Source of the DNA: Candidatus Bathyarchaeia archaeon
Lineage (GTDB): Archaea; Thermoproteota; Bathyarchaeia; Bathyarchaeales; Bathycorpusculaceae
Direction of reading: 5' to 3'
Assembly (NCBI GenBank): GCA_049521795.1
Contig: JBEKOM010000004.1
Span: 59,078-123,077, forward strand
DNA length: 64,000 nucleotides
Shown: in pieces, positions 10,876 through 49,553 of the stretch
Layout: each line of letters begins with the position of its first letter
Position numbering within the stretch: position 1 is the first letter of the stretch
Translations under genes and position numbers: made by a program
Notes under the pieces: generated by a model
Seen by the model: the letters and a program-made list of their open reading frames with translations, nothing else
Database searches by the model: none
What the model was told of the DNA's origin: nothing

Positions 10876-12720
10876 ATGAGTATTGCAAAGCCTCTTCTCG
10901 ATTATGCTAAGTCTCTTAAACCGCAGAAGGGTTTCGCGCAGTCCTTTTCGGATTTCAAAAGACTCTTGCATTATCACAGGAGATACCCTTGGCACGTCTC
11001 GGCTATAGTTGTTCTTGCATTGATAAGGTCCATTTTGTTCTCGCTCGAACCATTGTATACCTCCTACATTATCATCTACGTCATAGGACCCCCGACTGAC
11101 ACTAGTCTGTTGATGACCTATCTACTCATTATCGTACTGGCCGGAATAGGCTACGCCATAACAAACTTCATTCTGACTTACGTGCACGGGATAATGTCCC
11201 AGTATATAGTGCGAGACATAAGGTCCGAGTATTACCGTTCGCTTCAGAGCAAATCCTTCAGTTTTTACGATTCTGTAGGCGTTGGAGATCTAACGTCAAG
11301 AGCCACAGTGGACCTTCAATTAGTCGACATGTTTCTGAGAACATGGCTGGGTACCGTTCTTAACGCCATCTTCACAACAATCATCATCGTTGTGATAACT
11401 CTCTCAATAAGCCCGACTATGACCCTGATCTCCATGGCCACGATGCCGCTCATCTTCTATTTCACAACGCGCCTATGGATAGACACGATGCCCCTCTTCA
11501 GAAACATGCAGCTAATCATAGGAAGATTGACTTCATACATACAGCAAAACATCGTCGGAATGAAAACAGTCAGGATATTCCGCCGAGAAAAAGATGTTGT
11601 CGATGGATTCAAAGACGTGGAAGACATATACGTGAACACTGCAATCACCGCGGGCAAAATACAATCAATCTACATGCCACTCGGTCCAGCGATACTCACG
11701 CTTGGAGCAGCACTGGTCTACGTTTACGCAGGAATTACGCTGGGTGTTCCATACTCAGCCCTGGCGGTTGCTCAAATTGGCTACTTGATTCTCTTTGTCA
11801 GATACATGATGAGACTGACCTTTCCCATAAGGGATGTAAGCCAGACTCTTGGCACGTGGATTGCCGCTTACGCGGGATTGGAAAGAGTGCAAGAAATGAT
11901 AGATGCTCCAAGAGGCGTTGAAGACTTGCCTAACGCCAGAGACATTAGGATAGAAAAAGGAAAACTTGAGCTGGAAAACGTCACGTTTGGGTACGTGAAA
12001 GACAAGCCTGTGCTAAATAACGTCACTTTCACTGTGCAGCCAGGTGAAAAAATAGCGATACTGGGCGCAACAGGGTCCGGAAAGAGTTCTCTGATATACC
12101 TAATCCCAAGGTTTTATGACATCCAGGGGGGAAGCATTAGAATAGATGGCACGGATATCCACGAATTCAAACTGGCTTCGCTCAGACGGCAGATAGGCGT
12201 AGTGCTGCAAGATGTTTTCCTGTTTTCTGGAACGATGAAGGAGAACATTGCCTTCGGTAAGCCTGACGCCTCGATGGATGAAATAGTCCAAGCTGCTAAA
12301 TCAGCCAAAATACACGATTTCATTGAATCCCTTCCATCTGGTTACGACACACCTGTTGGGGAAAGGGGGATCACGCTTTCGGGAGGCCAGAAGCAGAGAA
12401 TAACCATAGCGAGAGCGCTCGTGGGCAACCCGAGGATGCTGATAATGGACGATTCGCTCTCCTTTGTGGACGCAAAGACGGAGCAAGAAATTCAATCCGC
12501 AATAGAAGAAGCAACAAAGACAAGGACAACCCTCATAATCGCGCAGAGATTCTCAACGATAAAGACGGCTAAAAAGATACTTGTCCTTGAGAATGGTTCA
12601 GTAGCGGAATTTGGCACCCACGAGGAGCTCATGGCAAGAGATGGCGTCTACAAGAAGGTCTATGAAACCCAGTTTGTCCAAAAAGCTTCACCTATCCTAC
12701 GGGAAGGAGGTGGTTCCTAG
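10876..12720 (+). CDS. ABC exporter, fused TMD-NBD half-transporter
   Basis: Six TM helices, then Walker A GATGSGKSS, signature LSGGQKQR and Walker B LIMDDS. Confidence 0.9.
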   Translation: MSIAKPLLDYAKSLKPQKGFAQSFSDFKRLLHYHRRYPWHVSAIVVLALIRSILFSLEPLYTSYIIIYVIGPPTDTSLLMTYLLIIVLAGIGYAITNFILTYVHGIMSQYIVRDIRSEYYRSLQSKSFSFYDSVGVGDLTSRATVDLQLVDMFLRTWLGTVLNAIFTTIIIVVITLSISPTMTLISMATMPLIFYFTTRLWIDTMPLFRNMQLIIGRLTSYIQQNIVGMKTVRIFRREKDVVDGFKDVEDIYVNTAITAGKIQSIYMPLGPAILTLGAALVYVYAGITLGVPYSALAVAQIGYLILFVRYMMRLTFPIRDVSQTLGTWIAAYAGLERVQEMIDAPRGVEDLPNARDIRIEKGKLELENVTFGYVKDKPVLNNVTFTVQPGEKIAILGATGSGKSSLIYLIPRFYDIQGGSIRIDGTDIHEFKLASLRRQIGVVLQDVFLFSGTMKENIAFGKPDASMDEIVQAAKSAKIHDFIESLPSGYDTPVGERGITLSGGQKQRITIARALVGNPRMLIMDDSLSFVDAKTEQEIQSAIEEATKTRTTLIIAQRFSTIKTAKKILVLENGSVAEFGTHEELMARDGVYKKVYETQFVQKASPILREGGGS

Positions 12721-13781
12721 TGTCAGGTTCGTATGGAACTTTCTCGACGAAAGAGGAAGAGAGAAGAAAAAGAACCGTCCCTGACCGGGTGCTGATCAGA
12801 AGGGTCTACGAGTACGCTCAAGCCCACAAACGAAACCTGCAAATCGGCGTTACCGCCACGATAGCCGGCGCCTTCACCGGCCTAGCTGCCCCCTACATGC
12901 ACGCGATAGCTATCGACAGCATAATAACGCCGAAAAACCTTTCGAGCTTCATATGGTGGATCCCCCTGTTCGCCGCCATCATTCTAGGCAACTATCTCTT
13001 CCAGTACATCCAAACCTATCAAATGCGCATAGTGGGAGAAAAAGTGGTTGCAAAGATGCGGGACGACATGATGGAAAAACTGCAGGTCATCTCTCTCAAG
13101 TATTTTTCAGAAGGCGAAGCTGGGAGAATCATTTCCCGCCCGACCAACGACGCCAACACCGTCAGAATATTCATCAGAGTTGGACTGACGAGCATTCTGG
13201 TAGACATCTCCTCGATACTAGGCGCCTTCGCAATCATGTTCTTTCTTGACCTTCGACTGTCACTTCTGGCCATCTCGGTTCTGCCCGTGGCCATAGTGCT
13301 AGTCTGGTACCTCGGAAAATACTCAAGAGCTGCTTACAGGAGAACGCTAATCACGACTTCAGGGTTGACGGCAAGGTTACAGGAAGACTTGGCAGGCATG
13401 AAAGTCACCCAAGCTTACGCGCAGGAGAAAGAGACAGAAAAGAAGTTCCTAAAGAGTCAAGACGAAAACGTCAAGGCTACGATCAGAGCCATCCTCATAG
13501 GCTCGTCTTACACGCCGTTTGTGATAGCACTGAGGCTGATCGGAACCATGATAATCCTGTTCTTCGGCGTCTACGCCTTGTTGGCCGGAACGATCACGTT
13601 AGGAATTCTCGTAGCCTTTATCGAGTACCAGTTCTCATACTTCATGCCACTGGTTGACCTTGTGACCATGTACGACCAGTACCAGTCGACGATGTCTGCG
13701 ATTGAAAGAATGTTCGATGTGATAGACACGAAAGTCGAAGTCGTCGACGCACCGCCTGAAAGGAGTATCGCGCTCCAATGA
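12720..13781 (+). CDS. ABC exporter transmembrane domain only (partner subunit, N-terminal part)
   Basis: 353 aa with type-I exporter TMD topology. It ends at ...DAPPERSIALQ, exactly where the NBD linker normally continues. Confidence 0.8.
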   Translation: MSGSYGTFSTKEEERRKRTVPDRVLIRRVYEYAQAHKRNLQIGVTATIAGAFTGLAAPYMHAIAIDSIITPKNLSSFIWWIPLFAAIILGNYLFQYIQTYQMRIVGEKVVAKMRDDMMEKLQVISLKYFSEGEAGRIISRPTNDANTVRIFIRVGLTSILVDISSILGAFAIMFFLDLRLSLLAISVLPVAIVLVWYLGKYSRAAYRRTLITTSGLTARLQEDLAGMKVTQAYAQEKETEKKFLKSQDENVKATIRAILIGSSYTPFVIALRLIGTMIILFFGVYALLAGTITLGILVAFIEYQFSYFMPLVDLVTMYDQYQSTMSAIERMFDVIDTKVEVVDAPPERSIALQ

Positions 13782-20757: not shown

Positions 20758-20835
20758 GGGCAAAAAAATCACCATCTGCCATAACAAGCTATTTTCTCAA
20801 ACGAGCCAGAAACTTGACCCCACGGTGAAAAATGG

Positions 20836-21038
20836 TGGTGGGGCCGGCCGGATTTGAACCGACGACCTTTACCCGGAGACAGTGCTTTCGGCGCTGCTCC
20901 TACGGGTTTCTCCTGACAGCTCCAGAACCTCTTCATCCCCTTTTGAGGTCCGCAAACCCGTTAGCTACTTTCTGGAGCCCGTCGTCATACCTTAGCCGAT
21001 CGATCAATCGGTCGATCGACTGCCTAGACTACGACCCC
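20836..21038 (-). tRNA. intron-containing tRNA, read as tRNA-Trp (anticodon CCA) with three introns
   Basis: Acceptor GGGGTCG (21038-21032) pairs with CGGCCCC (20846-20840). Discriminator A is followed by an encoded CCA (20838-20836). T arm is GTCGG-TTCAAAT-CCGGC. Anticodon arm is ACGGG-CTCCAG[intron]A-CCCGT, with the anticodon at 20975-20973. The gene is 203 nt, so about 125 nt must be intronic. Confidence 0.7.
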
Positions 21039-21181
21039 ACGGCCACACTGAGAAGGACTTGCCAGATTTTAAATATATGCATTATTGCGTCAAGAACAGA
21101 ATCTGTGCATATGCCAAAAATCCGAGAAGACATATCAGCCTGGAGCGATAAGCTTATGAGCATAGGGTTGTCGTCTAGTTT

Positions 21182-21307
21182 GGGGTTTGCCGGTCATAGG
21201 GCGCGGGTCCCACCTGATCCCATACCGAACTCAGAAGTTAAACCGCGCTCCGTTTCCGGCTGTAATTTGGTCTTCGGCCATGTGAACCCGGAAAAGCTGG
21301 TAACCCC
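21182..21307 (+). rRNA. 5S ribosomal RNA, not linked to 16S/23S
   Basis: Contains CGGTCATAG and CCCATACCGAACTCAGAAGTTAAACCGCGC. Helix I is GGGGTT(T)GCCGG paired with CTGGTAACCCC. Length is 126 nt. Confidence 0.85.
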
Positions 21308-21369
21308 ACTTCAAAACAGTCCACGAATTTGGAGGAAAATTACCCAAAACTTATAACTGAGCATCTATA

Positions 21370-22962: not shown

Positions 22963-23903
22963 GTTAACACGGAACAGCCGTCCGCAACGATCAAAACAGT
23001 GTGCTCTGCTTGGGCAACTGTTTTTCCGCTCGCCTCGACGAAAATCGGATACTTCATCAAGGTCTTCGAAGCCAACAGTTCGTCGAAGGCTTCTCTGTAA
23101 TGTTGCTGGGGCACAACATTCTGCAGCCAGCGTTCCGCAAAGGGTAAAGTTCTAAAGTTGTCTTCAATGTACTTTTGAAGTTCTCTCGCGTGAGGGTTTT
23201 TCGTAGACCTCGACCTGAGAAAACGGAAAATCGTGGATTCGTCACCGTTTTCAACTCTGCCCGCAGCGTTTGGAACGGTTACGAAAGGTTCGATGGCATA
23301 AACGCTACCTAACTTGATTTTTGTTGAAAAAAGCTGTGAAACGTTTGGCAACGACGTGCCAGTGTGCACGACGTACCTGCCGACCTGATGACCCGTCAAG
23401 TTTGAAATGGGTTTGAAACCGCGAGACTTGATCGCACGTTCTATCATTGTCCCAAGCTTTGACGTGGACATTCCTAGTTGAATGTTTTCGACGGCAGTCT
23501 TCAAAGCATGTTCTGCCGTTTCCACCAAGCTTTCGTATTCGGGGTCAAAACACACTGTAACCGCGGTGTCAGTCAGGTAGCCGTCGATGTGGGCGCCGAT
23601 GTCCACTTTGACTAAAGATTTCTCGGGGATTCTTCTCTCATCATCCGGGGGAGAAGTGTAATGCGCAGCAACTTCATTCACGGAAACGTTACATGGAAAC
23701 GCTGGCTTTGCTCCCTTCTGCCTTATCAGGCTCTCCGCTTTCTCGCAAATGTCGATGATCGGCATGCCTTCACGTACATAATTCTTCATTTCTTCCCGCG
23801 TCTCGCGCAGAATCTTCCCTGAGAGGCGAAGCTTTTCAAGAACTTCCTTTTCAGATTCGCTCATCAAAGTCACTTTTTCCAGACGTGCGATCTTGCACTT
23901 CAC
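22959..23903 (-). CDS. map: methionine aminopeptidase, type 2 (archaeal)
   Basis: FPCNVSVNEVAAHY, DIGAHIDGY, GHQVGRY..H and EHTVLI metal-ligand pattern. The real start may be the MSESEK Met at 23864. Confidence 0.92.
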   Translation of the reverse strand: MKCKIARLEKVTLMSESEKEVLEKLRLSGKILRETREEMKNYVREGMPIIDICEKAESLIRQKGAKPAFPCNVSVNEVAAHYTSPPDDERRIPEKSLVKVDIGAHIDGYLTDTAVTVCFDPEYESLVETAEHALKTAVENIQLGMSTSKLGTMIERAIKSRGFKPISNLTGHQVGRYVVHTGTSLPNVSQLFSTKIKLGSVYAIEPFVTVPNAAGRVENGDESTIFRFLRSRSTKNPHARELQKYIEDNFRTLPFAERWLQNVVPQQHYREAFDELLASKTLMKYPIFVEASGKTVAQAEHTVLIVADGCSVLT

Positions 23904-25030
23904 CTTTTTATGTGGAATTCTCCGATTATGTCTCTTGCTTTTTCACGCTTCTTCTGATGCCCAACGAGAAACTTGTTGACTCTTTCAGCGAGTTCTTTCT
24001 TGCACTCGCCGCACAGGACTTCGCCAGCCTTGCAGCGTCTCTTCCTTTCTGCAAGTTTCTCGTCATCCTCCTCGTACAGATAGAGGAAATATTGAAAGAC
24101 TGTGCAGACATCAGGGTCGGCGCCCTCTTTTCTTTGTTCAGCGACTGTTCCTTTTCCACCCGTAAATGCCTTCCAGATCTTCTGTTCAACCAGTTCAGGC
24201 GGGTCTGTCGTGAAGATCGCTGTCTCAGGTTCTGAAGCGCTCATCTTCCCACCGACGCCTAATCCTGGCAAGAAACGGTTGTGGATCTGAGCTGGCTTGT
24301 AGTACCCAAGCTTCTGGGCGATGTCTCGCGTGATCCTCCAGAAGGGGTCCTGGTCTATCGCTGCTGGTATAAGAGCGGGGACGTTTTCTCCAGTTAGTTT
24401 CTTGTGTATGAAACAAGGAACCGCTTGGACGGCGGGCCAGAATACCCAGCCGAGGTTTGTGCTGTCCTGAAAACCAAAGGTCGCTCTTGCCGTGGAATAC
24501 GTTATTCGCTTGGCAACTTCCAACGCAATGTCGTAGAGCAAATCGATGTCATCAACATCGTAGATGATGAAAGTGTTCTTCGGTTCAAAGCCCAGCGCAA
24601 CAAGGTCCAAAGCGTTCTCATAACCCAACTTCGTAGTTTCAGACAGGACGAGATCATCGTCGACCACGAACTTCTCATCGTCAGTCATCTGGAAGTAGAG
24701 CCGCGTGCCAAACGCGTCTTGAAGATGCTTCGTGAAAATCCAAGGAACAAGATGTCCAATGTGAACAGGGCCCGAAGGGCCTCTGCCCGTGTACAGCACG
24801 AACTTGACCCCTTTGTCGTACAAGTCAAGAACAACGCCTAGGTCTCTGTGAGAAAAGAACAGTTCCCTGCGCAGCTGAAGATGAACACCGCCAGTGTACT
24901 TGGCAAGTCTTCGCCGAAGCTCTTCGGTTAATGGCTCGGTTCCAAACTCTCGAATCAAACGTTCATAGTCAACCTTGCCCCTCACTTCCCAAGGAGTAAC
25001 GACCATTCCGTTTCTTTCCTCATCAGTCAA
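23900..25030 (-). CDS. trpS: tryptophanyl-tRNA synthetase (archaeal/eukaryotic type)
   Basis: TGRGPSGPVHIGHL (HIGH), MTDDEKF and KMSAS. Confidence 0.92.
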   Translation of the reverse strand: MTDEERNGMVVTPWEVRGKVDYERLIREFGTEPLTEELRRRLAKYTGGVHLQLRRELFFSHRDLGVVLDLYDKGVKFVLYTGRGPSGPVHIGHLVPWIFTKHLQDAFGTRLYFQMTDDEKFVVDDDLVLSETTKLGYENALDLVALGFEPKNTFIIYDVDDIDLLYDIALEVAKRITYSTARATFGFQDSTNLGWVFWPAVQAVPCFIHKKLTGENVPALIPAAIDQDPFWRITRDIAQKLGYYKPAQIHNRFLPGLGVGGKMSASEPETAIFTTDPPELVEQKIWKAFTGGKGTVAEQRKEGADPDVCTVFQYFLYLYEEDDEKLAERKRRCKAGEVLCGECKKELAERVNKFLVGHQKKREKARDIIGEFHIKR

Positions 25031-48308: not shown

Positions 48309-48627
48309 GGGCTGGCGAGTCGGTGTGTGGCTTTCGAGCCTCGACGAGAGAGGCTTGAGGAAACTCCGCCCACAAGTAGAGTTGCAGCGTCCGCAAGGAC
48401 GCAAGGTGAGAACCTTGGCTCCAGAGCAGAAACGAAACGTCCGCTCAGCAAGTGACGGTGATGCATGTTAAGTTGTTGAGGATGCTGAGTGCGAAGCGAT
48501 GAAACGGCTGACCTGCAAGTGGAAAGGGCAAGCAGACGCTGATGAAGAGTCTACCGGAAGCGCGGGTAGCCCGATTAGCCGAATGCCACAAAGAACAAAA
48601 GGCGGGTTACGACCAACACGCCAGCTC
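48309..48627 (+). ncRNA. rnpB: RNase P RNA (archaeal type A-like)
   Basis: P1 is GCTGGCG (48311-48317) paired with CGCCAGC (48619-48625). P3 hairpin is GGCTTTCGAGCC. CR-I is GAGGAAACTCCGCCC. CR-IV/V is CCACAAAGAACAAAAGGCGGGTTAC, and P4 pairs CCGCC with GGCGG. Length is about 319 nt, with an A/T-rich box 25-35 bp upstream. Confidence 0.8.
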
Positions 48628-48662: not shown

Positions 48663-49553
48663 ATGAATAAGAACGGCATCCTTGCCCAATTCTTGATCCA
48701 TTGTCAAAAAACTGCCTTGTCCGAAGAAACCATCAACACCAAATACAAAGTTCTCAGAGTAATGCTCACTAATAACGTCAACCTAAACGACTCTGACCAA
48801 GTTAAGATTTTCATTCACAACCGCAAACAATGGAGTAACGGACACAAAAGCATAGCCGTATTTGCCTATGATGAATACTGCAAAATGAAAGAAATCCAAT
48901 GGACTCCGCCAGAATATCCCAAAAACGAGACTCTACCATTCGTTCCAACTGAAAAAGAAATAGACGCACTCATAAACGGAACAAGTACAAAAGTATCCAT
49001 TACACTGCAAGCACTAAAAGAAACAGCGTTCCGTATCGGCGAACTCTGGAGATGTAAATGGACAGACATCGACGAAGAAAAATCAACCCTGAAATGTAAT
49101 CAGCCCGAAAAGAAATGTGCTCCAAGGGAAGTGCGAATCTCAAGTAAATTGATCGCAAGATTCAACCTTCTACCAAAAACCAACGAGTATATATTCGGTA
49201 AAACGCGCATAAGTGCAACTCGAACAACTTTCTGCAACCAACGTAATAGCCTCGCCAGAAAACTCAACAACCCAAGACTCAAACAAATACATTTTCATAC
49301 CTTTAGACACTACCACGCCACTAGACTCTACAATGAAACAAAAAGTCTTATAGAAGTACAAGCTCGCCTTGGACATCGAAACATAAACTCAACCATGGTC
49401 CATACTCATATTGTACAATTCGATGAAGAGAGCCAAAACTATCATCATGCAATAGCTCGCAATGAAAAGGAAGCTGGCGAACTAATAGACAACGGATGGA
49501 CGTACATCTGCACAACCCCACAGAATGTAATGATGTTCCGAAAACGCAAATAG
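48663..49553 (+). CDS. tyrosine recombinase / phage-type integrase
   Basis: ETAFRIGEL (Arg I), HTFRHYHAT (H-x-x-R), LGHRNINSTMVHTH (the catalytic Tyr position appears to be replaced or offset; needs alignment), plus an N-terminal SAM-like core-binding domain. Confidence 0.85.
   Translation: MNKNGILAQFLIHCQKTALSEETINTKYKVLRVMLTNNVNLNDSDQVKIFIHNRKQWSNGHKSIAVFAYDEYCKMKEIQWTPPEYPKNETLPFVPTEKEIDALINGTSTKVSITLQALKETAFRIGELWRCKWTDIDEEKSTLKCNQPEKKCAPREVRISSKLIARFNLLPKTNEYIFGKTRISATRTTFCNQRNSLARKLNNPRLKQIHFHTFRHYHATRLYNETKSLIEVQARLGHRNINSTMVHTHIVQFDEESQNYHHAIARNEKEAGELIDNGWTYICTTPQNVMMFRKRK

Follow-up and report, generated by a model that had tools for sequence, protein, structure and literature searches.

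Structure of the gene

We have analysed a 64,000-nt stretch of DNA from a Candidatus Bathyarchaeia archaeon (assembly GCA_049521795.1, contig JBEKOM010000004.1, positions 59,078 to 123,077), hereafter the window, which carries on its minus strand a 203-nt tRNA-Trp(CCA) gene in which the tRNA is interrupted by three inserts. The ends of the gene are as an earlier note, made from the sequence alone, had read them, with a 7-bp acceptor stem (GGGGUCG/CGGCCCC) containing a single U5-G68 pair, A73, the T arm GUCGG-UUCAAAU-CCGGC and an encoded CCA. On the minus strand the gene reads GGGGUCG-UA-GUCU-AGGCAG, a 29-nt insert, GUA-UGAC-G-ACGGG-CUCCAG, a 64-nt insert, A-CCCGU and a 33-nt insert, and ends in AGGUC-GUCGG-UUCAAAU-CCGGC-CGGCCCC-A-CCA. 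The A73 discriminator and the G1-C72 pair, both of which are present, are identity elements of archaeal and eukaryal tRNA-Trp.

Removal of the three inserts yields a mature tRNA of 74 nt plus CCA, a length which matches that of the orthologue in one relative (L014), a 142-nt gene carrying only the central insert as a 65-nt intron, and which replaces the 75 nt plus CCA proposed previously. ARAGORN identifies the spliced sequence as tRNA-Trp(cca). The unspliced gene, in contrast, is missed or misnamed: in default mode ARAGORN detects zero tRNAs across the whole window and, with one intron allowed, it recovers the same ends but calls tRNA-Asn(att) with a 111-nt intron. The covariance-model check, performed with Rfam (RF00005), detected no tRNA in the unspliced gene, either at the gathering threshold or with the cut-off relaxed to E<=10, as expected because the gene contains 126 nt of inserts. 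The only gathering-threshold Rfam matches in the window are an archaeal RNase P RNA at 48315-48621 and a 5S rRNA at 21186-21305.

Conservation in relatives and position of the inserts

Homologues of the tryptophanyl-tRNA synthetase (TrpRS) encoded near the tRNA gene are found at 77-95% identity in genome bins named "Candidatus Bathyarchaeia/Bathyarchaeota", which agrees with the earlier guess of a lineage within the TACK archaea (Thaumarchaeota, Aigarchaeota, Crenarchaeota and Korarchaeota). The neighbourhoods of trpS in 80 Bathyarchaeia species representatives, designated here by L numbers, were compared, and in 26 of the 80 a tRNA-Trp orthologue of 142-203 nt is located 3-5 kb downstream of trpS on the same strand. 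With metagenomic sequences included, the full sample comprises ∼76 orthologous genes with 57 distinct sequences of the central insert, intron 2.

The exons are near-invariant across the orthologues while the inserts vary. Exon 1, GGGGUCGUAGUCUAGGCAG, differs at 3 positions in some relatives, and exon 2, GUAUGACGACGGGCUCCAG, which contains the anticodon C34-C35-A36 at 20975-20973, is nearly invariant across all orthologues, with variation at the second base only. Intron 2, at 37/38, is present in every orthologue. The D-loop insert, intron 1, occurs in 7 of the 26 genes, the window's own included, and is precisely absent from the closest relatives, L003 and L004, in which TrpRS is 95% identical to that of the window and GGCAG is contiguous with GUAUGAC. 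The variable-region insert, intron 3, is present in 16 and absent from 10 of the 26, GUAGGUC being contiguous in the latter. All four combinations of presence and absence of introns 1 and 3 are observed, with all three introns accumulated in the window, L007 and L015. In L003, L014 and further relatives, the exon joins created by intron removal are read without interruption; the splice junctions are thus fixed by comparison with orthologues lacking the inserts, and the combination of near-invariant exons with variable inserts indicates that the latter are discrete, dispensable units of a conserved tRNA-Trp gene. In its intron mode ARAGORN correctly reports genes with intron 2 only as tRNA-Trp(cca) with an intron at position 37, and gives a wrong isotype for every gene with the D-loop insert (Asn, Val, Ala, Pro or Gln among the miscalls). 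Intron 2 is ancestral in the clade, introns 1 (18/19) and 3 (43/44) are later, lineage-variable additions, and the relatives show both intron gain and loss. The coordinates are given in Table 1.

Table 1. Coordinates of the tRNA-Trp(CCA) gene and of associated elements in the window.
Feature	Position	Strand	Basis or remark
tRNA-Trp(CCA) gene, complete, encoded CCA, 203 nt	20836..21038	-	sequence; ARAGORN on spliced product; ∼76 orthologous genes
Exon 1, positions 1-18 (acceptor 5' strand, D stem 5' strand, D loop to G18)	21020..21038	-	near-identical to orthologues without intron 1
Intron 1, 29 nt between G18 and G19, relaxed bulge-helix-bulge	20991..21019	-	orthologue comparison
Exon 2, positions 19-37 (D loop 3' part, D stem 3' strand, anticodon stem 5' strand)	20972..20990	-	
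Intron 2, 64 nt, canonical 37/38 site, strict hBH (outer helix, bulge, central helix)	20908..20971	-	in all orthologues
Antisense element 1, AACGGGUUUG	20953..20962	-	complements the intron's last two As and A38-U43
D'-like box CGGA	20949..20952	-	CGGA in 27 and CUGA in 16 of 57 distinct introns; immediately 5' of covarying hairpin
Hairpin CCUC-AAAA-GGGG closing the kink-turn	20937..20948	-	compensatory changes CCAG/CUGG, CCGC/GCGG
C'-like box AUGAAGA, 6/7 match to RUGAUGA	20930..20936	-	AUGA(A/C/U)GA in 53/57 distinct introns
Antisense element 2, 12-nt spacer, GGUUCUGGAGCU	20918..20929	-	complements G30-G37 and the first two intron bases
Exon 3, A38-U43, ACCCGU, anticodon stem 3' strand	20902..20907	-	invariant in all orthologues
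Intron 3, 33 nt at 43/44, strict bulge-helix-bulge	20869..20901	-	absent from many relatives
Exon 4, A44 to A76 (variable loop AGGUC, T arm, acceptor 3' strand, A73, CCA)	20836..20868	-	
Archaeal promoter element, TFB-recognition-element (BRE)/TATA-like, GCAUAUAUUUAAAA	21067..21080	-	ends 28 nt upstream of G1; conserved in most relatives' orthologues
T5 run, 3 nt past the encoded CCA	20828..20832	-	sequence

Splicing motifs

The junctions were compared with the geometry of the archaeal bulge-helix-bulge (BHB) motif, in which each strand consists of a 4-nt helix H followed by a 3-nt bulge and is cut after the second bulge base (^). Intron 2 corresponds exactly to the 64-nt segment described previously, with a 4-bp H between CUCC (32-35) and GGAG (20913-20910), bulges AG^A and AA^A, and the anticodon stem as outer helix h. 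H is paired at 4/4 or 3/4 positions and h at 5/5 in 26 of 26 genomic homologues.

Intron 3 also forms a strict BHB, with H between A38-C41 (ACCC) and GGGU, bulges GU^A and AA^A, and a helix h' made up of GGAG/CUCC and an inner CAG/CUG. Repeated bases permit this insert to be placed in four registers, and a BHB is formed at 43/44 only, in all 16 genomic homologues which carry the intron; registers 44/45, 45/46 and 46/47 give none. The length of 33 nt reported previously therefore stands, while its register is shifted by one nucleotide from 20868-20900, or 44/45, a correction that leaves the spliced product identical. Across 18 distinct sequences 90.9% of the cells in the alignment pair, and slid registers reach no more than 56%; compensatory changes are seen at four pairs, and GGG(U/G)AAA is kept in 18/18.

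Intron 1 is more relaxed. H is reduced to the 3 bp formed by G15-G16-C17 with GCU, between bulges AG^U and AG^G, and h' is a 7-bp helix, CGAUCGA/UCGAUCG. The earlier note had placed a D-loop intron of about 28 nt at 20994-21021; the D loop is correct, and size and position are altered to 29 nt at 20991-21019 by orthologue comparison, since alleles of the L005 type (GGCAG|ACGG...AUCAA|GUAUGAC) restore G18-G19 only if the intron lies at 18/19. The 10-bp hairpin noted previously exists and competes with the BHB fold. The three corrections, to intron 1, to the position of intron 3 and to the mature length, are minor. A metagenome scan raised the intron-1 sample to 29 distinct sequences in 46 full-length genes. 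These have a constant layout, with a bulge AG^N, an h' closed by CG/CG, GCUA pairing with G15-G16-C17, and a bulge A(A/G)^G. In 26 distinct sequences, 78% of the cells pair at the BHB register compared with at most 44% in slid registers, and h' contains compensatory changes. In L015 (11020-11070) intron 1 is an almost pure (GAUC)n palindrome, which suggests that slippage or recombination may shape the intron-1 stem.

With the junctions fixed by exon homology and the probability of a pair taken as 6/16, the helices required would arise by chance at ∼1e-4 to 1e-3 per site, at three sites, and 18, 26 and 57 distinct sequences display these motifs again, with compensatory changes.

Cleavage at intron 1 depends on the type of endonuclease, owing to its relaxed motif. 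Relaxed motifs are substrates of (alpha-beta)2 or epsilon2 enzymes (PMC5829648, PMC4033280), and intron 1 would imply that the host possesses an endonuclease of such broad specificity.

Expression signals and neighbouring genes

The trpS gene (23900-25030, minus strand, NCBIfam 2.3e-155) is located 2.86 kb from the tRNA gene on the same strand, the 2.9 kb of the earlier note. Other neighbours encode a P-type ATPase, a DUF1512 protein and a type II methionine aminopeptidase, in addition to trpS, pheS and pheT. A stand-alone 5S rRNA gene (21186-21305, plus strand, Rfam 70.2 bits) lies in divergent orientation to the tRNA-Trp gene across a 147-bp spacer, which holds the conserved TATA-like element. 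The T5 run which follows the encoded CCA is a likely archaeal transcription stop. A plus-strand ATG open reading frame (ORF) of 174 aa (20832-21356) extends across the tRNA-Trp and 5S rRNA genes; it is almost certainly spurious, though gene finders could call it.

Evaluation of the three-intron interpretation

Taken together, the ARAGORN identification of the spliced product, the single-intron orthologues, the discrete nature of the inserts and the covarying BHB motifs uphold the earlier proposal that tRNA-Trp(CCA) results from removal of three introns. We consider it likely that the locus is a functional Bathyarchaeia tRNA-Trp(CCA) gene and that the three introns of its transcript are removed by the archaeal splicing endonuclease and the RtcB ligase. 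Several points weigh against this interpretation. Actual splicing of all three introns is inferred from sequence. The central helix of intron 1 is only 3 bp, A14 lying opposite an A and never pairing in the 26 distinct sequences, and it falls to 2/4 in GAUC-type alleles. An EndA gene was not found in the ∼42 kb of the window (∼16.8-58.5 kb) with Pfam-annotated gene calls, and tblastn with a Methanocaldococcus jannaschii EndA query gave only chance-level matches in the window and the relatives' loci. The survey of tRNA-Trp genes covers the window and the trpS neighbourhoods, and a second, uninterrupted copy may be present elsewhere in the genome.

The inserts could also be retained in part, only the 37/38 intron being spliced and the D-loop and variable-region inserts remaining as expansion hairpins, for example as a long variable arm resembling that of class II tRNAs. 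Both inserts do fold as stable hairpins, the 10-bp hairpin of intron 1 and that of intron 3 in the minimum free energy (MFE) fold, and long variable arms exist in other tRNA classes. We nevertheless regard retention as unlikely. The inserts are present or absent between relatives with 95% identical TrpRS, and the synthetase therefore cannot depend on them. GGG(U/G)AAA in all intron-3 sequences is positioned for pairing with A38-C41 and for two 3-nt bulges, a feature which a variable arm does not predict. If intron 1 were retained, G18 and G19 would be set apart and the contact between the D loop and T loop lost, and a variable region of 38 nt would, to our knowledge, exceed known class II arms.

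The gene might instead be a decaying pseudogene with palindromic insertions, translation being served by an intact second tRNA-Trp elsewhere. The palindromic, microsatellite-like character of intron 1, which in L015 takes the form (GATC)n, is consistent with decay, as are the truncated tRNA-Trp copies of some relatives and the confinement of our survey to the window and trpS neighbourhoods. Decay, however, does not fit with exons that are near-invariant in ∼76 genes while the inserts diverge, with a conserved promoter, with intron helices which stay paired through compensatory changes, or with the position of the gene at the syntenic locus bearing the sole tRNA-Trp gene found in every relative's trpS neighbourhood; moreover, archaeal genomes usually have non-redundant tRNA genes (PMC3293823). 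A pseudogene is accordingly judged quite improbable.

An assembly chimera of alleles from a mixed population could in principle create a three-insert structure, and the population is clearly polymorphic at the locus. Three-intron alleles are, however, also found in the species representatives L007 and L015, 5 of 46 full-length genes with intron 1 (genomic and metagenomic) also carry intron 3, and metagenome contig L117 has the same intron-1 sequence. An independent Logan assembly carries an identical copy of the PheT protein encoded 6 kb away, on a contig which stops short of the tRNA gene. A chimera can hardly be credited.

Intron 2 as a candidate methylation guide

In addition to its splicing motif, intron 2 has box C/D-like content which had not been recognised in the earlier note, nor had the mutually exclusive folding of introns 2 and 3 or the link to integrases described below. 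Alignment and tabulation of the 57 distinct intron-2 sequences from 76 genes, with a search pattern allowing a spacer of 9-16 nt, indicated a fixed order of elements: an antisense element ACGGGUUUG, C(G/U)GA, a covarying hairpin, AUGA(A/C/U)GA, a 12-nt spacer, and GUCA or a variant. Antisense element 1 is conserved as NNNGGUUU(G/A) in 43 of the 57 and is followed directly by the D'-like box, as AACGGGUUUG|CGGA, such that the fifth base upstream of the box pairs with C39, the N+5 position. In the hairpin, pairs 2-3 form in 21 of 22 distinct sequences and comprise five pair types. The series NNGA, covarying stem-loop and (A/G)AUGA(A/C)GA is found in 22/22 distinct sequences, with spacing that fits a 3-nt kink-turn (K-turn) loop. 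As judged from K-turn geometry, the middle part of intron 2 appears to have what the sequence of a D'/C' K-turn requires.

The spacer following the C'-like box, (G/A)(G/A)UUCUGGAGCN, is exactly 12 nt in all 56 introns, of the 57 distinct, which matched the pattern. The tetramer GUCA (20914-20917) is located at the site expected for box D; relatives have GUCA, GUUA, GUCU and similar sequences, never CUGA. C34 is at N+5 only if GUCA is counted as box D. C39 is predicted with confidence as a methylation target, and C34 tentatively.

Two negative results count against guide function. Terminal C and D boxes are unrecognisable in intron 2, the corresponding sites being occupied by AAAGUAG and by GUCA or variants, with no GA dinucleotide at the D position in any homologue. 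Rfam matches to box C/D families are sub-threshold only (sR40, 13.8 bits, E = 3.5; sR14, 9.7 bits; SNORD31, 12.4 bits). The sR40 match was briefly of interest as a link to the Pyrococcus tRNA-Trp intron and was dropped, as that intron is sR50 (PMC7994747); it is at most a hint of C/D-like composition. Terminal C/D K-turns constructed from the intron 5' end, exon AUGACGA and GUCA were rejected as none fits the tandem G·A geometry.

The same segments display further complementarity. GUCA is Watson-Crick complementary to exon UGAC (positions 22-25; 20981-20984), and in L005, L008, L023 and L039 the tetramer is extended to GUCAUAC, complementary to GUAUGAC (19-25). Exon AUGACGA (21-27) is a 6/7 box C match.

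In the euryarchaeal system, as reported by d'Orval in 2001 and Bortolin in 2003, both guide duplexes are said to span the exon-intron junction and to exclude the BHB fold. The pre-tRNA-Trp intron of Haloferax volcanii guides formation of Cm34 and Um39, and this guide, known as sR50 in Pyrococcus (PMC7994747), is described as conserved in euryarchaeotes (PMC11408192, PMC7714728, PMC7994747). The intron in the window resides in the same tRNA at the same position, and its two antisense elements likewise each bridge an exon-intron junction, cover 34 and 39, and form duplexes that exclude the BHB fold. It differs in that only the internal C'/D' K-turn is recognisable, position 39 is C rather than U, and the host belongs to TACK. 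By analogy, intron 2 may work like the euryarchaeal intron, as a box C/D-type 2'-O-methylation guide, although we do not file it as a proven member.

Competing folds and order of splicing

The exon sequence ACCCGU (38-43) has three competing partners, the 5' strand of the anticodon stem, the D'-side guide in intron 2 and GGGU of intron 3. As H of intron 3 uses the anticodon-stem 3' strand that the intron-2 BHB requires, introns 2 and 3 are never both spliceable at once. The unconstrained MFE fold of the full precursor (-77.7 kcal/mol) contains the intron-3 BHB together with the duplex of antisense element 2 and the anticodon loop, compared with -73.2 kcal/mol when the BHBs of introns 1 and 3 are forced and -69.6 kcal/mol when those of introns 1 and 2 are forced. 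A constrained fold containing both guide duplexes in cis is a pseudoknot, for which the energy is invalid, and was discarded. Because the MFE fold already holds the intron-3 BHB, these folding models suggest that intron 3 is probably removed before intron 2. Dependent introns, in which excision of one is a precondition for BHB formation at the next, occur in other archaea (PMC8450103, PMC4033280). The overlap of the intron-2 and intron-3 splicing motifs predicts ordered splicing, which is directly testable. In a fuller and rather doubtful scenario, intron 3 would be excised first, guided methylation would follow, and intron 2 would then be spliced.

Integrase elements and mosaicism of the locus

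The genomic context of intron 1 in two relatives, L011 (11668-12869) and L064 (11186-12685), associates it with an integrase. In both, a 28-nt tRNA-Trp fragment (positions 1-28, without intron 1) is located behind the native promoter and leads directly into a 318-aa tyrosine integrase (PF00589, E = 1.1e-18), the ATG of which is the AUG of GUAUGACGAC; an intact tRNA-Trp with intron 1 lies ∼1 kb downstream. L011 and L014 share 97.5% identity along the 3,568 bp that end at tRNA position 28; L011 then contains ∼1.05 kb of extra sequence, and alignment resumes at position 19 with 98.5% identity. Both the integrase and intron 1 are lacking from L014. The comparison indicates that an integrase element and intron 1 entered one relative together.

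The same arrangement has been described for tRNA-Thr(GGU) of Caldiarchaeum subterraneum, where alleles differ in intron number and a tRNA fragment, a recombinase and a full tRNA with an extra intron follow one another, which was read as gain from an intron-carrying attP (PMC3293823). L011 and L064 resemble it with respect to intron 1, while the tRNA and the phylum are different and the element, ∼1.05 kb, carries the integrase alone. In the window the tRNA gene has intron 1 behind its native promoter and no adjacent integrase, a configuration which could fit later loss of the integrase element by recombination. A tyrosine integrase is encoded elsewhere in the window (48663-49553, plus strand, PF00589 E = 1.2e-18) and is 36% identical to that of L011. 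Its start lies 42 nt beyond the RNase P RNA gene (48315-48621, plus strand), and it may represent another integration next to a structured-RNA gene. Viral contigs contained no exact match to the 5' part of the tRNA. Copies of introns 1 and 3 were found only within tRNA-Trp genes, a result with little bearing on transposition as the DNA searched was almost all trpS neighbourhood.

The tRNA locus also differs from its surroundings in sequence history. L004 (10991-11141), despite its 95% identical TrpRS, has a different intron-2 class from the window, lacks introns 1 and 3, and has a different T arm and no encoded CCA. L014 has two copies: an intact tRNA-Trp (11668-11809) with intron 2 only and a different T arm, and, 1.8 kb downstream (∼13577-13730), a 5'-truncated copy starting from ∼position 17 with window-like intron 2, intron 3 and T arm. 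The ORFs between the two have no Pfam match. Combined, L004 and the second copy of L014 indicate a locus that is mosaic relative to its surroundings and that appears to be exchanged faster than its neighbours. An encoded CCA is present in the window's gene and most relatives, and L004, L042, L071 and L075 end in ...CCCCACU or ...CCCCACAUUUUU.

These observations are compatible with a broader proposal, which we put forward as possible though rather doubtful, that the Bathyarchaeia tRNA-Trp gene is a recombination hotspot at which integrase elements with partial-tRNA attachment sites ferry introns in and out, the precursor acting as a multi-state RNA switch. The three-intron allele of the window would then be one product of integrase-borne intron traffic.

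Relation to known systems and significance

In the Thermoproteales, tRNA genes interrupted by as many as three introns, with relaxed BHB motifs, are well documented, and non-canonical introns also occur in Thaumarchaeota and Korarchaeota (PMC4033280, PMC8450103). The gene described here resembles those of Pyrobaculum calidifontis and Thermofilum in having at most three BHB introns, one at 37/38 and the others at non-canonical sites with relaxed motifs, in the variation of intron content between relatives, and in that neighbouring introns can need ordered removal (PMC4033280, PMC8450103). Unlike those cases, the host belongs to the Bathyarchaeia and is derived from a metagenome, and the comparison is based here on one tRNA gene. 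A literature search found no paper describing tRNA introns in Bathyarchaeia, which is not proof of absence. The gene structure is therefore of a known kind, in a lineage for which we found no earlier description.

Since standard finders miss or misname the gene, Bathyarchaeia genomes may be scored as lacking tRNA-Trp. The clade provides a natural series of one-, two- and three-intron alleles, and the genome pair with 97.5% identical flanks, differing by the integrase element and intron 1, is the snapshot sought by the model of intron gain through mobile elements (PMC3293823, PMC4033280). Should intron 2 prove to be a methylation guide, the range of the tRNA-Trp intron guides would extend beyond the Euryarchaeota, and a guide-carrying TACK tRNA-Trp intron would mean, if true, that the device either predates the Euryarchaeota/TACK split or was transferred between them.

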